The notes below the pieces were generated by a model that saw nothing but the letters and a program-made list of their open reading frames with translations, searched no databases and had not been told where the DNA came from. Below are positions 302 to 60,134 of a stretch of 64,000 nucleotides of DNA, piece by piece. The DNA lies in contig OX597823.1 in the NCBI GenBank assembly GCA_951406725.2, positions 88,970,001 through 89,034,000 of the forward strand, given 5' to 3'. This stretch comes from Octopus vulgaris (taxonomy: Eukaryota). The position numbers and the translations under genes are program-made. The first letter of the stretch is position 1, and each line of letters starts with the position of its first letter.

Positions 302-560
302 TCAATGAAAAATGTTTATTTTATTTAAACATTCTAGTTGAGAGATTGTGTCTTTGCACTGGTAGAAATGGAAGACTGTGAAATTTGGTTTGATGATACC
401 TGCACTTTTTTCTATATGTTCACTGAGAGGAATTTGTCTGTATTGTGGGAAACGGACTTGCTCTTTATGTAGAGTGGTTCTCTTGCTCAAGGTCATACTT
501 GTTTGTCCAATATAGTGGTGTCCGCAACCCGAGCAGGTTATTACATAATTTAGGTTCTCA
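302..560 (-). pseudogene. Penelope-like GIY-YIG endonuclease 3' fragment
   Basis: Translation NLNYVITCSGCGHHYIGQT...RTTLHKEQVR...PLSEHI matches the PLE GIY-YIG pattern and resembles the C-terminus at 56170-56443. Confidence 0.8.
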
Positions 561-3652: not shown

Positions 3653-4286
3653 TTTATAATTGCGAATATATTCACTTATGAAAGGTATATTTTGACTGAC
3701 ATTTAGATTTTTCCCCCTACCCCTTTGTTTTAGACTCAGATCGTATTTATGATTTTTCTTAAAGTAATTCAGATCATATCTGTAATTGAGAAACATTTTC
3801 CTTCACTTAAACGTTTTTAGATTGTATTTAAATCATAACTATACTTACTTAGAACTCATTCTTTCAAAAACATAGCCATACACGGCTAAATCAAGAACAT
3901 ATGGAATTTTAATCCAAAAATTTAACCACATCCATACAACCAATCTCTCTCCCTTACGTTAATGAGTACAAAAGAATTAAAAATATACAAGACCATGAAA
4001 TGTAATTATAATTCTTACTGGAGAAAATCAAAAACAACATATGGTTTTCCAATTGCAAACTTTAACCACTTGAATGCAAAAATTCCTTTACTCACCACCC
4101 TGAAGGTCACTAAGTGGAAAGAAACAACAAATTGAATTCTAAACAAACAAGTCTGACCACAATGACGCAAAAGCCACGCCTCCTTTATCTGTTCCTCTCT
4201 CTCAAGTTTATTTCTTTTTCTTTTCCCTCCCTTCGCAAACCCCAAAGCACACTCCTTCCTTCTTTTCTCTTCTCTATCTCCATTAA

Positions 4287-45054: not shown

Positions 45055-45599
45055 TTTGTTTTCTTCTCACTTACTTGTGTCTCTACTTACTAACCGTCAG
45101 CCATTTTGTATTTCTATTGTATGTCTTCATTTGCGCATGCTTATATCTCTATGTGCGTCTATGTTTATTTAGTGTGTGTGGGGGGGATGCCTGTAATATT
45201 TGTATCTTCTGGTTATATACATTCTTGTAATTTGTATTTTGTTTTTGTTGTTATTGCTTTTGTTCTAATTTTGTTCATGTGTTTACATCCACCCATTATT
45301 ATCATTACATATGCTTGTATGTATGTATAACAACAATATTAGTAATAATAATAATAAATCTAATCGAAAAAAAAAAATAAATTAAAAAAAAAAAAATAAA
45401 AAAAAATAAGAAAAGAATATACATATACATATATATATATACATACATATACATATACATATACATATATATATATACATACATATACACATACATATAC
45501 ATATATATGCACATATACACACATATATACACATATAGATATTCATTTCTATTTCTTTAATTACCTGTGTATTTATTATGTTTGCAGGATCCACTATTG

Positions 45600-46449
45600 T
45601 CATATGTTGTGGTGTGCGCTATTGCTCCATTCTAGTTTTCTATTCAGGCTAGGTTTATTTTCTATTATATGTGTAGCTTCTGTAATTTGTCTAATTGTTG
45701 CATCTGTTCTATGTGTTGACAATATCTTAATCTCTATGTTATTGATTGATCCCCCGTGTTCTTGTTCGGCGTGTTGGTACAGAATCGATGAGCTTTTACC
45801 TTCCTTGAGTTGTCTCCAATGTTCATTCACCCGCTCACCAATGCTTCTTGCAGTTTACCCTACGTATGTTACTGTCTTGTTACTGCATCGTCCCTCTATA
45901 CATCTTATACTATAGACCACATTTCTGGCTTTACAGTTCGTTTGTGGGCTAAATCTACATACAGTGCAATAGTTATCCGTACAGAGAGTTCTACTAAAAG
46001 GATAGCTTCTACCAATTATAGATCTGATAGGGTTGCCTGGCTTTTCAACAACCTTAATTCTTAGTTTAAGTTTATCTAGGGTCCTTCTAAAGCGGTACGC
46101 TAGTTCACCTCCAGGGGTGGTGTCAACGAACATGACACTCTGGTATTTATGGCTATCATACCAAGAGTTGGCCTTCCCTATTTTCTTTTTTGTCCTTTCT
46201 ATAGTGTTCCATGACTTGTTCCTATAGAGTGGGCAAATCCCATTCCTATCATTACATAATATATTATCAAATTTCTTCATGGCTCCTTTGTATACTCTGA
46301 TCCTTTCTTTATGGCTGTAACCTGAGAACTGCATGCGGTGAATGAAATACTGTATGTGTCTCTTTAATTCTGTAGGCTCGCACATGCGTGACACATTTCT
46401 CATTATTCTGACGAGGTCTGCCATCAAAATATTGAATTTGGCATTGCCC
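45600..46449 (-). pseudogene. Mirror PLE GIY-YIG ORF with a GAA>TAA nonsense change at 45855-45857
   Basis: ORFs 45855-46427 and 45600-45830 are collinear with the right arm. Confidence 0.85.
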
Positions 46450-46496
46450 GCGAGCCTACAGAATTAAAGAGACACATACAGTATTTCATTCACCGC

Positions 46497-47231
46497 ATGC
46501 AGTTCTCAGGTTACAGCCATAAAGAAAGGATCAGAGTATACAAAGGAGCCATGAAGAAATTTGATAATATATTATGTAATGATAGGAATGGGATTTGCCC
46601 ACTCTATAGGAACAAGTCATGGAACACTATAGAAAGGACAAAAAAGAAAATAGGGAAGGCCAACTCTTGGTATGATAGCCATAAATACCAGAGTGTCATG
46701 TTCGTTGACACCACCCCTGGAGGTGAACTAGCGTACCGCTTTAGAAGGACCCTAGATAAACTTAAACTAAGAATTAAGGTTGTTGAAAAGCCAGGCAACC
46801 CTATCAGATCTATAATTGGTAGAAGCTATCCTTTTAGTAGAACTCTCTGTACGGATAACTATTGCACTGTATGTAGATTTAGCCCACAAACGAACTGTAA
46901 AGCCAGAAATGTGGTCTATAGTATAAGATGTATAGAGGGACGATGCAGTAACAAGACAGTAACATACGTAGGGGAAACTGCAAGAAGCATTGGTGAGCGG
47001 GTGAATGAACATTGGAGACAACTCAAGGAAGGTAAAAGCTCATCGATTCTGTACCAACACGCCGAACAAGAACACGGGGGATCAATCAATAACATAGAGA
47101 TTAAGATATTGTCAACACATAGAACAGATGCAACAATTAGACAAATTACAGAAGCTACACATATAATAGAAAATAAACCTAGCCTGAATAGAAAACTAGA
47201 ATGGAGCAATAGCGCACACCACAACATATGA
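46497..47231 (+). CDS. PLE RT-thumb / Zn-finger linker / GIY-YIG endonuclease, 5'-truncated
   Basis: MQFSGY...CPLYR...FVDTTP...CTDNYCTVC...NVVYSIRC...YVGETARSIGERVNEH...RQITEA. Confidence 0.85.
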   Translation: MQFSGYSHKERIRVYKGAMKKFDNILCNDRNGICPLYRNKSWNTIERTKKKIGKANSWYDSHKYQSVMFVDTTPGGELAYRFRRTLDKLKLRIKVVEKPGNPIRSIIGRSYPFSRTLCTDNYCTVCRFSPQTNCKARNVVYSIRCIEGRCSNKTVTYVGETARSIGERVNEHWRQLKEGKSSSILYQHAEQEHGGSINNIEIKILSTHRTDATIRQITEATHIIENKPSLNRKLEWSNSAHHNI

Positions 47232-47778
47232 CAATAGTGGATCCTGCAAACATAATAAATACACAGGTAATTAAAGAAATAGAAATGAATATCTATATGT
47301 GTATATATGTGTGTATATGTGCATATATATGTATATGTATGTGTATATGTATGTATATATATATATGTATATGTATATGTATATGTATGTATATATATAT
47401 ATGTATATGTATATTCTTTTCTTATTTTTTTTTATTTTTTTTTTTTAATTTATTTTTTTTTTTTCGAATAGATTTATTATTATTATTACTAATATTGTTG
47501 TTATACATACATACAAGCATATGTAATGATAATAATGGGTGGATGTAAACACATGAACAAAATTAGAACAAAAGCAATAACAACAAAAACAAAATACAAA
47601 TTACAAGAATGTATATAACCAGAAGATACAAATATTACAGGCATCCCCCCCACACACACACTAAATAAACATAGACGCACATAGAGATATAAGCATGCGC
47701 AAATGAAGACATACAATAGAAATACAAAATGGCTGACGGTTAGTAAGGAGAGACACAAGTAAGTGAGAAGAAAACAAA

Positions 47779-51475: not shown

Positions 51476-52374
51476 TATATACATCTTTATTTCAAATTTT
51501 GACTTAAGCCAATCAGTTTCGGGAGAGGAGGAAAATCGATTACATCGCCCCCAGTGATCAACTGGTATTTATTTTATCGACCCGATAGGATGAAACGCAA
51601 TTCGACCTCGGCAGAATTTGAATTTGCTCACCAACCGCATGGTCTGCGTGGCAACTTGGGCAAGTGTCGTTTACTATAGCCTCGGGCCGACCAAAGCCTT
51701 GTGAGTTGATTTCGTAGACAGAAAGAGAAATATATATATATATATTTACGTATATGCGTATGTGTATCTGGATCTCTCTCTCTCTCCTTATATATATTTC
51801 TTCTCCACTTCCTCCCTTATTTTTATTTAGTTTTTATTTATTTTTTTATATATTTTTTTTTATATATTTTTAATTATTTTTTATTTTTATTTTTATATTT
51901 ATTTTTATTTTTATTTTCCCTTTTCTCTTTCTTTCTCTCTCTCCTTCTCCAAACACACAGAGACACACACACACACACGCGCACACAAAAACACACACGG
52001 ACACACACACACACCTCCACAAAACGATCATAGAAAGTGTGACCCCAAATGACATTTGTCCGGCCAGCCTACGCACAACACACACTCAGTGACACGAGAC
52101 TGGACAGAGGGCAGAGCCAAAATTCTTAGAAAACCACAGGAGGTCCAGTAGGCCAACAGAATAATAATACTTCTTCTTCCCTATCAGATACAAACGCACA
52201 CACACACACATACACACACACACATACACACACACACATACACACACACACACACACATACACATACACACATGTTTTCTCTGTCTCACTTCCTCCTCAC
52301 CCTTTTATACTGTCTTATTCCTCCCCACCACTACTACGAAACTATAAAATGTTCAAATTACCCATCAAGGAATT

Positions 52375-52423
52375 GATTTGATTTGAAAACCCCACTCGAT
52401 TGGGAGAAAGCGCTAATCCGAAT
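52375..52423 (+). ncRNA. Variant hammerhead, U3-A8 core, in 5' pseudo-LTR
   Basis: ATTTGAT-TTGAAAA-CCCCA-CTCGAT-TGGGA-GAAA-GCGC-TA-ATCCGAAT. The pair at the base of stem II is a C.A mismatch. Confidence 0.5.
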
Positions 52424-52589
52424 GATATGATCTGAATGATATGATATATATGTAAAAAATGTAATATATAAATAAATATCTATAAATACGAACCATCCGA
52501 TCTGATTACCTCATTTTTTCTAATATATAATACCTGTACATCATCTCCAAACCTTCCAATACATATATTTGGATGTACATGACATCAGA

Positions 52590-54207
52590 ATGGATGGACT
52601 AATATCAGATCCACAAACAGAAGATACCAAAAATACAGAAAATATTGAAAGGAATGGAACAGAACCAGACCCCAAACAGGCTTATACCAAACACGCAGAA
52701 GACCTAACACAAATCTGCAAAATATGCAATGCCGAAATAAACAAGACAGAAACACATCTTCAACAGGGGAATACCAGAAACATGGAAGATCTATTCACAG
52801 AAACCTGTAGTATGTTAAATTCACTTCTCTCAAAAATTGATACGCTCTTTGCAAACATTGCTTTAACAATAAATACAATCCAAACACTAAATAGTCTCTC
52901 TAAAAATAATCAAGCAAACACAACTGACAACACAAACCTTCTGGCGGGACCACCCCAATCACAAAGGACAACAAATGACGAAGAAACAAAAACTGATACA
53001 AACCAAGAAAAACCTTCAAAACCCCAAGACTGGAACAAACTTCTAAACCAACGCAAATATGCTTACTGGAAAAACATACGCTGTAAGAACATAGCCAACA
53101 TATATCAGAACCCAATACTCCCCAGAAAATTTCTTATCAAAGAAATAAGGGGTGAAACACTAGAAGAAACAACAATACGTGCAAACCTAGCCCTCTGCCG
53201 ACTAGAAACGGAAATTTCCCTACTACAAACACGAAGCACACACCAGGAAGATAAGATTAAAACAATCGATACCGTCATAATGGCCGAGATAACAGAAAGG
53301 AACAATAACCAAAACAAAGAAAAACTACAACAATTATGGAAAGAGGATACCGAACGAGAGGAGGAAAGATCCAGAATTATGTGGAGCAAACAACATGAGT
53401 GGTTTTTAAACTACGAAAAGAACTATGGGGAAGAATCAATTATGAAGACAAAAAAACTACCAAAACAAGTGAATAGATACAACAAACCAACACCACAAAC
53501 ATATTGAACTCCCAGACATCAAAATACGCCCTACCAAACACAAACCAAAATCCCGCTCCTTACACTGCCCAATTAACAGATACACAAAATATGAAAGACA
53601 ACCATCAATTAACAGATACACAAAATATGAAAGACAACCATCAACCCAAAACCCTACAAAAATAAATACACCAACAGCAAGACGAGCACAATACATACAA
53701 CCAACAGCCTATAACACTTGGAGAGAACAAATAGAATATGAACAACCACCAACACATAACACTGGACATCCTAAAGGGACACACACATGGAACAATATAC
53801 AAATGGATAGAAATCAACACATAACCTACAACAAACATCGAGGAAATCGAAACCACACAAACACCAACCCCATGCAACCCCACAAATTTACAAGATGGAT
53901 AAAAAACAACTCCCACTATCAATACAATACAAACACAATACATGAACCATCCACCTACCCACAAAGAAACCTGAACCCCAGTAATAAATATTGGCTCAAC
54001 AAACACAGAAGATGGGAAGAAAACAACTACCAAAGACAAAACAACACATACAGACCACGCAGACCACCCCTACTACAAGAAAACCTAAGAACTGAAAATG
54101 GAATTTGGAGACGTAACAACACAACCCATTTTTTAGGGAGAGGATACTTCAACCATACTCCAGACCCAATACACCAAAATTTCCCGATGAACTCCCAAAA
54201 CACATAG
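52590..54207 (+). pseudogene. PLE ORF1 (~540 aa; helical N-half, N/T/P/Q/Y-rich C-half), one frame break near 53470-53505
   Basis: One frame is open 52569-53504 (first ATG 52590) and the next is open 53473-54204. In-frame 36 bp duplication at ~53570-53641. Confidence 0.7.
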
Positions 54208-56443
54208 ACCCCAAAATAATAAACTTATCTAAAAGAGAACTTGACGAATATGAAATGAACCTACTACTAAAAGGCCTCAAATTTACACCTACACCCACTC
54301 CAAACCTCATAGAACTAAAAACTGATATAGACAACTTCAGCCGCAACCTTCGCCTTATGGAATTCTTTGAAAATAAAGAAACAGAAGATAACTCAATCAT
54401 AAGAAAAAAATCTCACTTCACCCCTTACAAGGGAAGTGACAAACACCTTGACACATACATAGAAACAATATCCAAATTCCCTCTCCTCACACACAAATGC
54501 AAACAGAATCTCCGCAGAGAAGAGAAACAAGCCCTACAAAAACTGAAAAATGACAAATCAATCGTTATAAAAGAAGCTGACAAAGGTGGAGCAATAGTAA
54601 TTATGGACACAGATTACTACAAAGAAAAGATACTAGAGTTACTGAACAACCAGACATACTACAAAGAAGAACCAACACCACCGGAGAAAACAACGATATG
54701 AAAAATTAGAACTTTAGTCAATGAATATCAGGACTCCTTTACAGATAAGGAGGAAGACTATCTATGCAACTCACAAACCAAAGAAAGCAACATTTATGGA
54801 TTACCTAAAATTCATAAAAGCTCGGAAATACAGAGAGCCATAAAGGAACAGAGGAATCACTATATAAGAGTACAAAGGCCTGCAGACCTCACAATGAGAC
54901 CAATAGTGGCAGGACCCCAGGCACCAACACAACATCTAAGCCACTTCATAGATATACTCCTCAAACCTTTATGCCCACAGATTCCAAGCTACATAAGGGA
55001 TGACATAGACTTCCTCACACACATTCCAAATACAGTCCCGAAAAGCACCATACTTGCAAGCTTTGATGTCACAAATCTATACACAAACATACCACACACC
55101 CTAGGTCTAGAAGCTATAAAACAATCAATAGAAAAATACAGAGAACTTATAGACGAACGCTTCAAGACAAACTTTATCACCCAAGCCACCCAACTAATAC
55201 TAGAAGAAAACACATTCTCATTCAACAACAAGACATACCGACAGATAAAAGGCACGGCTATGGGTACAAAATTCGCACCTTCATATGCCAACCTGGTGAT
55301 GGGCTTCCTGGAGTAAAAACTATATGACGAAATAGGGAAAGTCTTCGAACACGACTTCAGAGAAGACATCAAGAAAAAGTGGAAACGCTACCTCGATGAC
55401 TGTTTCATCTTTTGGAACAGATCAGAAGAGGACCTACAAACATTCCACAACATCCTCAATACGCTGCACCCATCTATCAATTTCACAATAGATACCAGCC
55501 ACAACGAACTTCCCTTCCTAGACATCAACATCAAAATACACAACTCCATCGTCACAACAGACATCCACTACAAAAAACTGACACACATCAATACTTAAAT
55601 TTCCACTCCTGCCACCCATCCCACACAAAAAGAAACATCCCATATAGTATGGCACGACGAATATGTAGCATAGTAACTGATTCACAAATACGATTAATAA
55701 GACTAGATGAACTCAAAAGCTTCCTCCTAGAGCAAAAATACCCCCTTAAACTAATAGAAAATGGAATCACAAGAGCATTAAAACTAGACATCACACAACT
55801 CAGGACACCCAAAACAAAAAACAAAGAAAACACTATCCCTTTTATAAACACACACAACCCTGGAGTTACCAACATCTTCCAAACCATACATTCAAACCTA
55901 CCAATAGCCTTACAAAGCCCCAAAATGAAAAACATATTAAACAAATATAGCATAAAAAACAGTAGACGACAGGACAAAAACCTAAAAAAACACCTAACAA
56001 GAGCGAAATTCTCTTCAGAAACTAAAACGGAATTCTTTGCAAAAGAGTGCGGAGATGGTAGATGTGGGACCTGCAGCAACCCCACCTACAAATACATAGA
56101 GAGCAACAGAGAGATAAGATTTAAAAATGGTGACATATTCAAAGTAAATGCAGATATGAACTGCAAGACGCAGAACGTCATATACTGCATAACCTGCCCC
56201 ACGTGCAAGGAGAATTACGTAGGTGAAACTGGTAATTCTTTGTGCCAGCGAGCCAGGATCCACCGACAACATATTCGGCAGGAAGAACTACGCAAAATAC
56301 CACTAAGCACACACCTAGCTACATGTGGAGAAGGAAAATTTAAGATATTTCCCTTCTACAAGTGTCCGAAGAACGACACCTCCTTCAGGAGGAATATGGA
56401 AAAACATTTCATAGCTAAGTTCTCCCCCAAATTAAATGGCTGA
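54117..56443 (+). pseudogene. PLE RT + GIY-YIG ORF with two nonsense codons and one frameshift
   Basis: A single frame carries KIINLSKREL...KGLKF through TGA (54699) and TAA (55314) to RYLDD. A 1 nt loss in the A-run near 55572 shifts into ORF 55412-56443. Confidence 0.9.
54129..54138 (+). promoter_or_regulatory. Putative -1 ribosomal frameshift site T TTT TTA GGG
   Basis: X XXY YYZ heptamer in phase with ORF1. The -1 frame is open from 54117 and runs into the RT. Confidence 0.6.
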
Positions 56444-56458
56444 AACTTTACTCAACAT

Positions 56459-57055
56459 ACATTGAAGGACAAATTTTTCGATTTACAATGTGATACAGTG
56501 GAACATTTAATATATGTTTGTATATATATAGGTGTGTGTGTGTATGTTACCTGTTATATACGTTATATTGTTTTTGCGATTTACTTCATCTTTACTTGCC
56601 AATTGTCATTCTAATTTTAACCTTCCTATGATATACAATTTTCAAGATGGTGTAACTTGATTATTCATTTTGATTCGATAGAAGGTGGATTTTTCTCTAA
56701 TATTTCATGTGTAAGCATGTATATATATATATATATAGTGACATTGAAGGACACATCTTTCGATTTACAATCTAATATAGTAGAACATTTAGGATATGTC
56801 TGTATGTGTATATATGTATATATATATATATATCTGTGTGTGTATAGATATGTGTATTGCCTGTTATATACATTATATTATATTATTATCTTTATAATTT
56901 ACTTCCATCTTTACCTTTTAATTGTCACTTTAATTTTAACTTTCCTATGATATACAATTTTCAAGATGGTGTAATTTGGTTATTCATTTTGAACCGATAA
57001 AAAGGTTTTTTTCAAATATTTTATGTATAAGTCTGTGTGTATATATATATATATG
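56459..57055 (+). repeat. Imperfect ~290 bp tandem duplication in PLE 3' UTR
   Basis: CATTGAAGGACA...TTTTCAAGATGGTGTAA at 56460 and 56742. Confidence 0.8.
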
Positions 57056-57673
57056 TATTGGTATAAATATCAACACACAAAAGTATTTTTTTCTTCTCCA
57101 CTTCCTCCCTTATTTTTATTTATTTTTTTATTTATTTTTTTATATTTTAATTTTTATTTTTTCATTTTTTATTTTTTATATATTTTTTATTATTTTTTAT
57201 TTTTATTTTTATATTTATATTTATTTTTATTTTCCCTTTTCTCTTTCTGTCTCTCTCTCCTTCTCCAAACACACAGACACACACACACACACGCACACAA
57301 AAACACACACGCACACACACACACACACCTCCACAAAACGATCATAGAAAGTGTGACCCCAAATGACATTTGTCCGGCCAGCCTACGCACAACACACACT
57401 CAGTGACACGAGACTGGACAGAGAGCAGAGCCAAAATTCTTAGAAAACCACAGGAGGTCCAGTAGGCCAACAGAATAATAATACTTCTTCTTCCCTATCA
57501 GATACAAACGCACACACACACACACACATACACACACACATACACACACACACACACACATACACATACACATGTTTTCTCTGTCTCACTTCCTCCTCAC
57601 CCTTTTATACTGTCTTATTCCTCCCCACCACTACTACGAAACTATAAAATGTTCAAATTACCCACAAGGAATT

Positions 57674-57722
57674 GATTTGATTTGAAAACCCCACTCGAAT
57701 GGGAGAAAGCGCTAATCCGAAT
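57674..57722 (+). ncRNA. Variant hammerhead, U3-A8 core, in 3' pseudo-LTR
   Basis: Same as 52375-52423 except for one change in loop II. Confidence 0.5.
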
Positions 57723-57814
57723 GATATGATCTGAATGATATGATATATATGTAAAAAATGTAATATATAAATAAATATCTATAAATACGAACCATCCGAT
57801 CTGATTACCTCATT

Positions 57815-57879
<65 letters not shown>

Positions 57880-58105
57880 GTGTGTGTGTATGTTTTTGTG
57901 TCTGCGTTTGTCCCCCCACCCAACATCGCTTGACAACCGATGTCTGTTTAGGTCCCCGTAACTTAGCGGTTCAGCAAAAGATACCGATAGAATAAGTACT
58001 AGGCTTACAAAGAATAAGTCCTGGGGTCGATTTGCTCGACTAAAGGCGGTGCTCCAGCATGGCCACAGTCAAATGACTGAAACAAGTAAAAAAGTAAAAG
58101 AGTAA
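57880..58105 (+). mobile_element. 3' half of a SINE family B copy (5' half at 51625-51725)
   Basis: Matches 5260-5455. The complementary head portion lies immediately upstream of the PLE. Confidence 0.8.
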
Positions 58106-58110
58106 AAGAG

Positions 58111-58152
<42 letters not shown>

Positions 58153-58310
58153 GTAGATATATATACATACATTCACAGACTCTCTCACATATATATGCAC
58201 AGGTATAATGTTATGTATGTATGTATGTATGTATGTAATAATACTCAATATATTATATATATATATATTTACATATATGCGTATGTGTATCTGGATCTCT
58301 CTCTCTCTCC

Positions 58311-58355
<45 letters not shown>

Positions 58356-58922
58356 AAAGAGGACGAGAAAATACAAGTGAGGGCGAGAAAGAAAGAGAGA
58401 AAGAGAGAGATGGTTGCATATATCATGTTACGCTAAACCAAACATCATTTTATGATGCAAGTGATGACGCACTCGCCATTTCTGTTGTAACTTCAAAGAC
58501 AATATTTACGGTATCAGTCCTGCTGCCATGATGATAACAGATGTGAGATTTGATAGAAGACAGTATTCCATTAATAGGTCAAAACGTATGTAATATACCG
58601 ATTCTGATGACGTAGAACGGATCCCATTAGCAGCGAAAATATACAACGTATGCATAAATTTATGGACAACATATATATAGCTTCTACATTTTCGTAAAAA
58701 GTTATTATATTACTATTATTAATATACATTGGTAATCTATTTCCAATCAAAACTTCATGTATATTATGCAATAGACTAACCGCGCTTTCGATCTCTGCAG
58801 TTCCACTGTCTGTTAAAACATGTGTGTTTGTGTGTGTGTATGTGTGTGCATGCGTGTGTATACGTGCGTGCGTGTGTGTGTATGTATTTGCGCACTTGTG
58901 TAACTGTACGTATCCGTCTGAC

Positions 58923-58956
<34 letters not shown>

Positions 58957-58957
58957 C

Positions 58958-60134
58958 CCATCATCGACCCTATCGCATCATCAACTCCTTCACCTGCACC
59001 TCCAGCAATATTATCTATTGCGTCTCTTGCTCTCTCTCTGCCATTCCCTGTACATCGGACAAACGGGACGCCGCTTGCCTGACCGGTTCGCGGAACACCT
59101 CCGTGACATCCGCCTTGCCAACGACACACCTGTCTCACGTCATTTCCGCTCCACCGGTTACTCCTTGCAACACCTGTCTGTGTTCGGTTTGTCCTTGCAC
59201 AGAGGCCATCCGGATTCCCGTTTGCGCCGTGAATAGGAATTAATCTTCTCTCTTCGCTCTTTTACGCCATTTGGCCTCAACTCTCCCCCTCCTCATCTAA
59301 CCCCCTCTCTCCCCTCCTCATCTAACCTCCCCCCGACCCCTACTTCTCTTCAGTCCTTCATCCTTTCACCCCTACTCCTCTTCCCTTCTTCCCACTTTCT
59401 TCTTCCCTCTTCCCCTTCCCTCTTTCTCTCTGCTTCCTCACTCCCCTTCTCTCTCTCTCCCCCTCTCCCTCTATCCTCTCCCCTCCTCTTCTCCTCTCCT
59501 TCCTTCTCCCCCTTCTCTCCTCTCCTCTTCTCCTCTCCTTCCTTCTCCCCTTCCCCCTTCTCTTCTCCCCTTTCCTCCCCCCTTACCCTCACCCCTCATC
59601 TCATCTCCCCCTCATCTCTCCTCTCTCTCCCCCTTACCTCCCCCTTTTCCCCTCTCCCCTCATCTCCTCTTTCTACACTACACCATACGACTTTACTAAT
59701 CACCCCTCATCCTCCCCTCCCCCCTCATCTCCTCTCTCTACACTACACCATACGACTTTACACATCACATCATATATACATACACACGTCCAGACCTCTC
59801 ATACGCACTAATACTCTCTCATACACACACTCACTCTTATGTTAGGGCGAGGTCATTTAACCCTATTATCTCCCCTAATTTCGTTCTTGCGTCTCACGTT
59901 TGATCTTTGACTTCTGGCCGAAATCAGATCGCCATGTTGATTCGCTAGCCTCTGCACGCATTTTTTTTCTCTCCTTCTTTCTGTGTTTCTTCTCTGTGTA
60001 TCTTTCTGTTGAAGAGCGTAGGCTCGAAACGTAAAAGACTTGTTTTATTTATATTCCCGAGCGCCATACTAATAAAATTGTTTGTTTGTATTCCACCTGC
60101 CTTCGTCTTTTGTTTATTTTCATAAAACTTCCCG

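Follow-up and report, generated by a model that had tools for sequence, protein, structure and literature searches.

A conserved ORF1 family and a candidate -1 frameshift site upstream of the reverse transcriptase of a Penelope-like element in Octopus vulgaris

Penelope-like elements (PLEs) are the retroelement group sister to telomerase, and their canonical endonuclease-bearing (EN+) members are described as single-ORF elements in the accessible sections of two accounts (PMC8557442; PMC6515669). Since a lone RT-EN ORF is all that is described for the canonical elements, how PLEs form RNPs has stayed an open question. Neptune and Nematis, which carry the endonuclease at the C-terminus, share with the element studied here direct pseudo-LTRs (pLTRs), the GLKF and DKGG RT motifs, a (TA)n junction, a CX2-5CxxC linker finger and a GIY-YIG with two internal cysteines (as defined in the available part of PMC8557442). 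Unlike these canonical elements, the octopus element is not single-ORF: its ORF1 overlaps the RT frame at -1. This was seen both in the window, by which we mean the whole 64,000-nucleotide stretch of Octopus vulgaris DNA analysed, and in a second, independent contig (L001).

ORF1s and frameshifts have been described elsewhere among PLEs. According to one figure legend, a frameshift with a pseudoknot can set ORF1 apart, and a coiled coil is listed (PMC8557442, Fig. 1 legend); another account describes two-ORF PLEs as being without an endonuclease and reports coiled-coil ORFs in Terminons (PMC6431247). The frameshift is reportedly that of the endonuclease-deficient Athena elements. Athena elements and Terminons would share with the octopus element a coiled-coil ORF1 and a probable frameshift. 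However, Athena is endonuclease-deficient, telomeric and rotifer-specific, whereas the octopus element carries a GIY-YIG fused to its RT, lies in interstitial DNA and is found in molluscs; no stable downstream hairpin is evident at the window site. Chlamys-2 and -5_cBra of Chara braunii are EN+ PLEs with an upstream ORF1 that is described as gag-like in the part of PMC8557442 available. Their ORF1 has a CCHC knuckle and their endonuclease is N-terminal, whereas the endonuclease of the octopus-type element is C-terminal and the CX2CX4HX4C zinc knuckle is absent from all 165 ORF1 homologues, which come from the best 150 of 842 clusters.

Outside the PLEs, the arrangement invites comparison with gag-pol and with LINE-1. 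The HIV-1 gag-pol slippery site reads U UUU UUA. The octopus element shares with retroviral and LTR gag-pol a heptamer identical to that of HIV-1, a -1 overlap and a downstream enzyme frame without its own start, but it has no recognisable motif of a capsid, knuckle, protease, RNase H or integrase, and a stable stem-loop is lacking after the window site. LINE-1 ORF1p consists of a coiled coil, an RRM and a CTD, and L1 ORF2p is a separate protein with no frameshift fusion. The upstream position, N-terminal coiled coil and basic character of the octopus ORF1 are shared with LINE-1 ORF1p, but its model is all-helical and contains no RRM.

Other accessory features of PLEs do not coincide with this ORF1. 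Esterases are reported for Neptune-like PLEs of fish and molluscs in the accessible part of PMC5408684; no esterase domain was found by Pfam in the window pieces of ORF1 or in 34 homologues. The N-rich inserts inside rotifer Penelope ORFs (PMC3846280, accessible part) sit at a different position from the ORF1 tail. The portions available of PMC6515669, PMC7140322, PMC5718144 and 10.64898/2026.07.22.740005 hold nothing contrary. In the literature covered, which did not extend to Repbase, Dfam and key Athena papers, there was no account of this ORF1 family or of an ORF1 with a frameshift in C-terminal EN+ PLEs, and individual two-ORF families may possibly have been annotated earlier. What is already known is an ORF1 and a frameshift in some PLEs; what is apparently new is a conserved ORF1 with a probable frameshift in the C-terminal EN+ lineage.

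Positions 51791-57828 of the window are a PLE, the features of which are collected in Table 1. Its two pLTRs are in direct orientation and 92.9% identical over 764 columns (blastn), with 710 of 720 aligned bases identical and the remaining differences being gaps. The copy is dead, since ORF2 is broken by stops at 54699 and 55314 and by a frame change near 55575. It is flanked by interstitial DNA rich in microsatellites. A 67-bp stretch just 5′ of the 5′ pLTR (51731-51797) has a second copy (94%) at 58254-58323, ~430 bp beyond the 3′ pLTR and separated from it by a SINE-like repeat; it is possibly a long target duplication or a copied flank. The 3′ untranslated region contains a diverged tandem duplication of ~300 bp (56459-56737 and 56741-57053, 74%). 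Elsewhere in the window, a near-perfect palindrome of 2.2 kb (45301-47530, 98.1%) consists of 3′ fragments from another PLE, two of them in inverted arrangement, and contains a GIY-YIG-like ORF at 46392-47231, and short GIY-YIG-like fragments of other PLEs lie at 335-556 (-) and 58922-59236 (+). Rfam searches of 51500-58500 and of five PLE loci from other assemblies (L001-L005) yielded no hammerhead and nothing that reached the gathering score, the matches being weak or driven by microsatellites. A minimal hammerhead-like core (CTGAnGA..GAAA) with a hairpin is present in L001 at 3660-3690, 150 nt past ORF2, and the window pLTR has a degenerate look-alike of this core at ~52375-52410 and nothing better.

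Table 1. Coordinates of the features of the octopus element, numbered within the window
Feature	Position	Strand	Remarks
5′ pseudo-LTR, repeats the 3′ end of the element in direct orientation	51791..52529	+	blastn vs 57084-57828
ORF1, 5′ part, 305 aa	52590..53507	+	ATG 52590, premature stop TGA 53505
N-terminal amphipathic helix, about four coiled-coil heptads (predicted)	52785..52922	+	Model helix 2-47, pLDDT 94-97 (residues 1-40)
Conserved all-helical core, three long helices (predicted)	53031..53420	+	Helices 84-108, 127-173, 176-213, pLDDT mostly >93
ORF1 tail, +1 frame, N/T/P/R/Q-rich, ends ...HFLG...	53473..54207	+	244 open codons, predicted disordered
ORF2: RT, CX4CX2C linker finger and C-terminal GIY-YIG	54117..56443	+	Pfam, motifs, L001 alignment
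Candidate -1 slippery heptamer T TTT TTA, ORF1 phase	54129..54135	+	Inside the ORF1/ORF2 overlap
3′ pseudo-LTR	57084..57828	+	(TA)n microsatellite directly after

ORF2 is 40% identical along its length to the intact 771-aa ORF2 of L001, and Pfam recognises a GIY-YIG at its C-terminus above the cut-off (E=2.5e-6) and RVT_1 below it (E=2e-4). The finger linking RT and endonuclease, C-X4-C-X2-C at 56048-56074, is of the CX2-5CxxC type of Neptune and Nematis. The CCHH residues of the endonuclease comprise two cysteines between the equivalents of GIY and YIG (56186-56206) and histidines at 56261 and further downstream. Motif inspection against the supplement rows available from PMC8557442 suggests a Neptune-like RT with a Nematis-like insertion site. 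An insertion of ~22 residues between KIHK and the next RP/RF motif (window ~54820-54890) also occurs in L001-L005 and in a gene model with ORF1 and RT (P0029); it is absent from three Neptune rows of that supplement and longer than in the Nematis rows (PMC8557442, part), and could possibly be diagnostic of the clade.

ORF1 in this copy is real but broken. The preliminary description had proposed an upstream ORF of ~540 codons, which holds only across the break: the span 52590-54204 is 1615 nt (538.3 codons), but the frame that opens with the ATG stops after 305 aa and the tail lies in the +1 frame, a net +1 shift. That this is the true tail frame follows from the alignment of the window tail with the tail of an intact relative (P0002, E=1e-19) and from the 15 and 9 stops in the remaining two frames of the tail DNA. 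The break is located between 53473 and ~53573, and comparison with P0002 and a second relative (P0001) suggests more than one small indel there. In addition, six core residues found in relatives are missing in the window (gap between 53108 and 53109), and 36 nt of the tail are duplicated in tandem (53571-53642). An A7 run (53450) was considered as the site of a second programmed shift and rejected, since the -1 frame there stops at 53474.

The ORF1 protein (ORF1p) belongs to a large conserved family without a name in Pfam. The protein closest to its 5′ part is Octopus sinensis LOC118766197, with 91% identity; three further proteins reach 44-50%. A single-sequence search returned four proteins and a five-row profile 20, while a full scan of 1.84 billion representatives yielded 842 clusters (50% identity) at E<=1e-3, of which 414 reached E<=1e-10 and 62 reached E<=1e-30, with 165 proteins in all from the best 150 of the 842. 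Named relatives come from O. sinensis, Mytilus edulis, M. coruscus and Ostrea edulis; another is on a 4-kb contig of a Solemya symbiont assembly, which is probably host DNA. The 113 of these 165 proteins in which the core end is present with at least 80 aa of tail have a median length of 383 aa, so that a typical member falls short of the ~540 codons spanned in the window. In a 142-row alignment, where the rows are 19-59% identical to the window protein (P0001 excepted), seven near-invariant core columns (W, R, P, K, E, D and W) show 90% conservation or more. Neither the two ORF1 pieces of the window nor 34 homologues match any Pfam family at its cut-off. Two weak PHROGs matches with no passing stretch were obtained among six proteins, and 85 stretches with ORF1 sequence patterns in prokaryotic genome contigs included none that was confirmed.

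Linkage to the RT was seen outside the window as well. An RT scan of prokaryotic genome contigs yielded 22 PLE loci (L001-L022), which are probably eukaryotic PLE contigs present in bacterial or archaeal assemblies through host contamination. In L001 an ORF1 homologue (E=1e-49, one internal stop) overlaps the intact 771-aa RT-EN frame at -1. In gene model P0029 the ORF1 core continues through HFLG into an RT with 40-48% identity to the window RT. ORF1 is therefore found upstream of a related RT in two independent cases, one a DNA sequence and the other a gene model. The other 21 loci gave no ORF1 match: in four close relatives the upstream sequence is too short to tell, and the remaining 17 belong to distant lineages, five of them with 6 kb of upstream sequence and still no match. 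The distant loci indicate that ORF1 is not general to PLEs. Over 196 aligned codons, the window and L001 cores show identities of 0.48, 0.58 and 0.35 at codon positions 1, 2 and 3, and 38 of 67 identical residues use different codons; this pattern, from one saturated pair and not a dN/dS estimate, indicates purifying selection. Purifying selection and homologues upstream of other PLE RTs, the two observations on which the preliminary description had staked its ORF1 beforehand, were both seen, and the ORF1 upstream of a PLE RT that it described is borne out as conserved and element-encoded by the L001 DNA, the P0029 gene model and the codon-position pattern. That ORF1 is a real protein of the element is, in our view, virtually certain. 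The idea that it is a chance ORF in A-rich, stop-poor DNA, or a host gene fragment captured in this copy only, could draw on the strong A skew of the + strand (AT skew up to 0.52) and on the broken state of the copy, but it is refuted by hundreds of diverged homologues, by the confident fold, by the same neighbour in L001 and P0029 and by the stops in the other tail frames, and its chance of being right is negligible.

Structure models predict three parts of ORF1p: a coiled coil at the N-terminus, a conserved core made up of helices only, and a basic tail that is disordered. The AlphaFold2 model of the window core is all-helical with a mean pLDDT of 88.2 and a pTM of 0.65, and the model of P0002 has the same core and a tail of ~210 residues with pLDDT mostly 35-50, in keeping with the disordered-looking tail anticipated at first sight. 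Helices were likewise anticipated as amphipathic or coiled-coil; they appear in the model, and a strict heptad was tested and seen for the N-terminal helix only, where positions 5, 8, 12, 15, 19, 22, 26 and 29 are hydrophobic in 82-99% of the 142 rows. All of the peptides singled out in the preliminary description are present (LFTETCSMLNSLLSKIDTLF at 52791-52850, WNKLLNQRKYAYWKNIR at 53031-53081, PILPRKF at 53112-53132, RANLALCRLETEISLLQ at 53178-53228 and LQQLWKEDTEREEERSR at 53325-53375), and the aromatic/basic block stands with its PILPRKF, but two of the quoted helices intervene before the tail that was said to follow it. Neither a gag zinc knuckle nor an RRM had been recognised by eye, and both absences persist: to the missing knuckle are added confident window and P0002 models without beta strands, from which the lack of an RRM follows, and Pfam scans without an RRM. 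Family medians of tail composition are 19% R+K, 9% D+E and 23% N+Q; 10 of 99 tails have four or more RG and 50 of 99 a short [TS][YF]A-type motif.

Foldseek, which had been suggested as a check on the predicted structure, was run with the confident helical core and returned nothing at E<=0.001 in PDB or BFVD, the N-terminal helix being barely covered by the fold searches. The best VIA results, Z 8.9 (rmsd 6.0, 121 aligned) and 8.7 (rmsd 6.5, 124 aligned), fell on a syntaxin-Habc-derived bundle, which was rejected as a fold identity since such Z values lie within the range of common helical arrangements. Searches for a capsid fold gave generic helical bundles only, and the PDB sequence profile gave only low-complexity and coiled-coil matches. 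Leads from the ESM Atlas were dropped, the best for the window protein (0.83) being a weak GCR1_C with low recognition and P0003 having no usable match. A homotrimer prediction for the P0002 core, run without an alignment, gave no verdict either way (score 0.01). As judged from these models, the fold searches demonstrate neither a known fold nor a new one.

Within the 3,854 nt of coding DNA (52590-56443) a run of six T occurs just once, in the T TTT TTA at the junction. This heptamer reads Phe-Leu in ORF1 phase, and the RT frame, which is -1 relative to the ORF1 tail, opens four codons upstream of it and runs into the RT, with no ATG or Met ahead of the first conserved motif of ORF2 (IINLS). 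L001 has T TTT TTG in ORF1 phase; its -1 frame contains a stop two codons before the run, and ORF2 has no Met until residue 140, past the NLS and GLKF motifs. An X XXY YYZ heptamer in phase with an open -1 frame is present in both of the elements whose junction was read as DNA, the other homologues having been read from protein. G is a non-canonical last base of a slippery heptamer. FL (94) or FF (4) occurs in the last 45 aa of 98 of the 113 homologues counted, compared with 4 of 108 in the neighbouring stretch; 500 shuffles gave 8.5 on average and 17 at most. As the original search profile included the FL/FF columns, a recount was made with a core-only profile, which gave 99 of 115 (50 of 57 high scorers and 49 of 58 low scorers). 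Of the 15 proteins among the 113 without a terminal FL/FF, P0001 is a decayed copy and P0029 and P0138 have FL further inside; the other twelve are unexplained.

The residue before FL/FF adds a further observation. K, E, Q, M and W are the only residues without an NNU codon. None of them precedes FL/FF in the 98 homologues, where 21.7% would be expected (binomial p=4e-11, a value inflated by the relatedness of the homologues; p=0.0036 when only the 12 distinct residues seen are counted). Such an exclusion is expected from a conserved U-UUU-UUN nucleotide run and not from a protein motif. His is over-represented at this position (32 of 98), which may reflect ancestry. Stimulatory RNA structure was sought as stem-loops, pseudoknots lying outside the model: none was found 3′ of the window heptamer (z -0.4 to +1.3 in 16 windows), and a modest hairpin follows that of L001 (best z -2.5 of 16 windows, uncorrected). 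ORF1-RT fusion proteins of 794-2265 aa were absent among 6203 candidates, which is weak evidence but consistent with separate frames. A stop falls exactly ten codons past FL/FF in 26 of the 98 homologues, a spacing that may reflect an overlapping RT motif or an RNA element, and a subgroup has GGG residues shortly past FL, which hints at a G-rich stimulator. The ORF layout and the conserved U-UUU-UU(A/G/U) run in ORF1 phase at the overlap are observed; slippage itself is inferred, and on the strength of these sequence comparisons a programmed -1 frameshift very probably joins ORF1 to RT-EN.

The conserved Phe-Leu codons can be read in other ways. The main rival for the signal takes the TTTTTTAG run as a 3′ splice acceptor, with the RT made from a spliced RNA that skips ORF1 and ORF1 as a separate product. 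The window does read TTTTTTAG directly followed by G, a good acceptor, a residue with a G-starting codon follows FL/FF in 71 of 98 homologues against a 19% background, which permits AG, and PLE introns are known (PMC8557442, accessible part). In L001, however, the sequence is TTTTTTGTTCC and AG is absent at the run, the next residue cannot begin with G in 27 of the 98 homologues, and an acceptor provides no reason for a constant ORF1 phase across tails very variable in length and sequence; we regard splicing as improbable. Slightly less probable still is that FL is a protein motif for binding or cleavage near the ORF1p C-terminus, ORF2 being reached by reinitiation or a non-AUG start as in LINE ORF2. 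The recurrence of FLG and HFL (LG in 47 and HF in 36 of 115) and the lack of a strong RNA stimulator among the structures found would suit such a motif, but that precisely K, E, Q, M and W are missing before FL tracks codon structure and not chemistry, and in the two elements read as DNA the -1 frame has been open for no more than 2-4 codons when it reaches the run and contains no Met ahead of the conserved RT motifs.

A different rival accepts the frameshift and concerns the function of the protein: ORF1p would act as an adaptor for host interaction or targeting (a membrane, chromatin or anti-silencing factor), carried on the RT fusion and made in excess. No known RNA-binding domain was recognised in ORF1p, its long amphipathic helices are compatible with adaptor roles, and other PLEs have accessory esterase, exonuclease and coiled-coil ORFs of unproven role (PMC5408684 and PMC6431247, each in part). 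Nevertheless, the basic disordered tail, the gag-like position and an excess set by frameshifting would, by analogy, fit a structural RNP protein, and we consider the adaptor role unlikely, if the main rival for function.

The reading we prefer, and hold to be probable, is that this is the ORF1 of a two-ORF EN+ PLE lineage whose proteins are expressed like gag and gag-pol. A single RNA starting in the 5′ pLTR would be translated mostly to ORF1p, and a minority of ribosomes would slip -1 at the U run to give an ORF1-RT-EN fusion. ORF1p would oligomerise via its coiled coil and bind the element RNA via its basic/aromatic core and R/K/N/Q-rich tail, and the fusion would co-assemble into the particle via its ORF1 part, setting the scaffold-to-enzyme ratio. 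The RT would thereby stay with the RNA that encodes it, ready for target-primed reverse transcription from a GIY-YIG nick, here at (TA)n. The role of ORF1p as an RNP scaffold, for which the predicted structure speaks, is somewhat less assured, though we favour it; RNA binding, oligomerisation and condensate formation are inferred from anatomy. The conserved -1 slippery site, overlooked in the preliminary description, places the arrangement closer to gag/gag-pol than to LINE ORF1/ORF2 and is the strongest support for the Gag analogy. By that analogy ORF1 would work like gag/gag-pol, but it has neither the knuckle of Gag nor the RRM of LINE ORF1p. A more speculative possibility, which we put forward only tentatively, is that a widespread, unrecognised EN+ PLE clade of marine invertebrates has arrived independently at a Gag/Gag-Pol strategy with a new all-helical family, which would build defined particles from the element RNA and a minor share of frameshifted RT-EN fusion, with no known capsid, RRM or zinc-knuckle fold involved.

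The analysis defines a protein family of several hundred clusters without a Pfam name, and it accounts for a class of mollusc gene models labelled 'uncharacterised', which are ORF1s of transposons. Consensus sequences of these elements that start at the RT miss more than 1 kb of coding sequence. For the retroelement group itself, a scaffold-like ORF1 combined with a frameshift signal is a directly testable system, using a reporter assay and the recombinant 25-kDa core.
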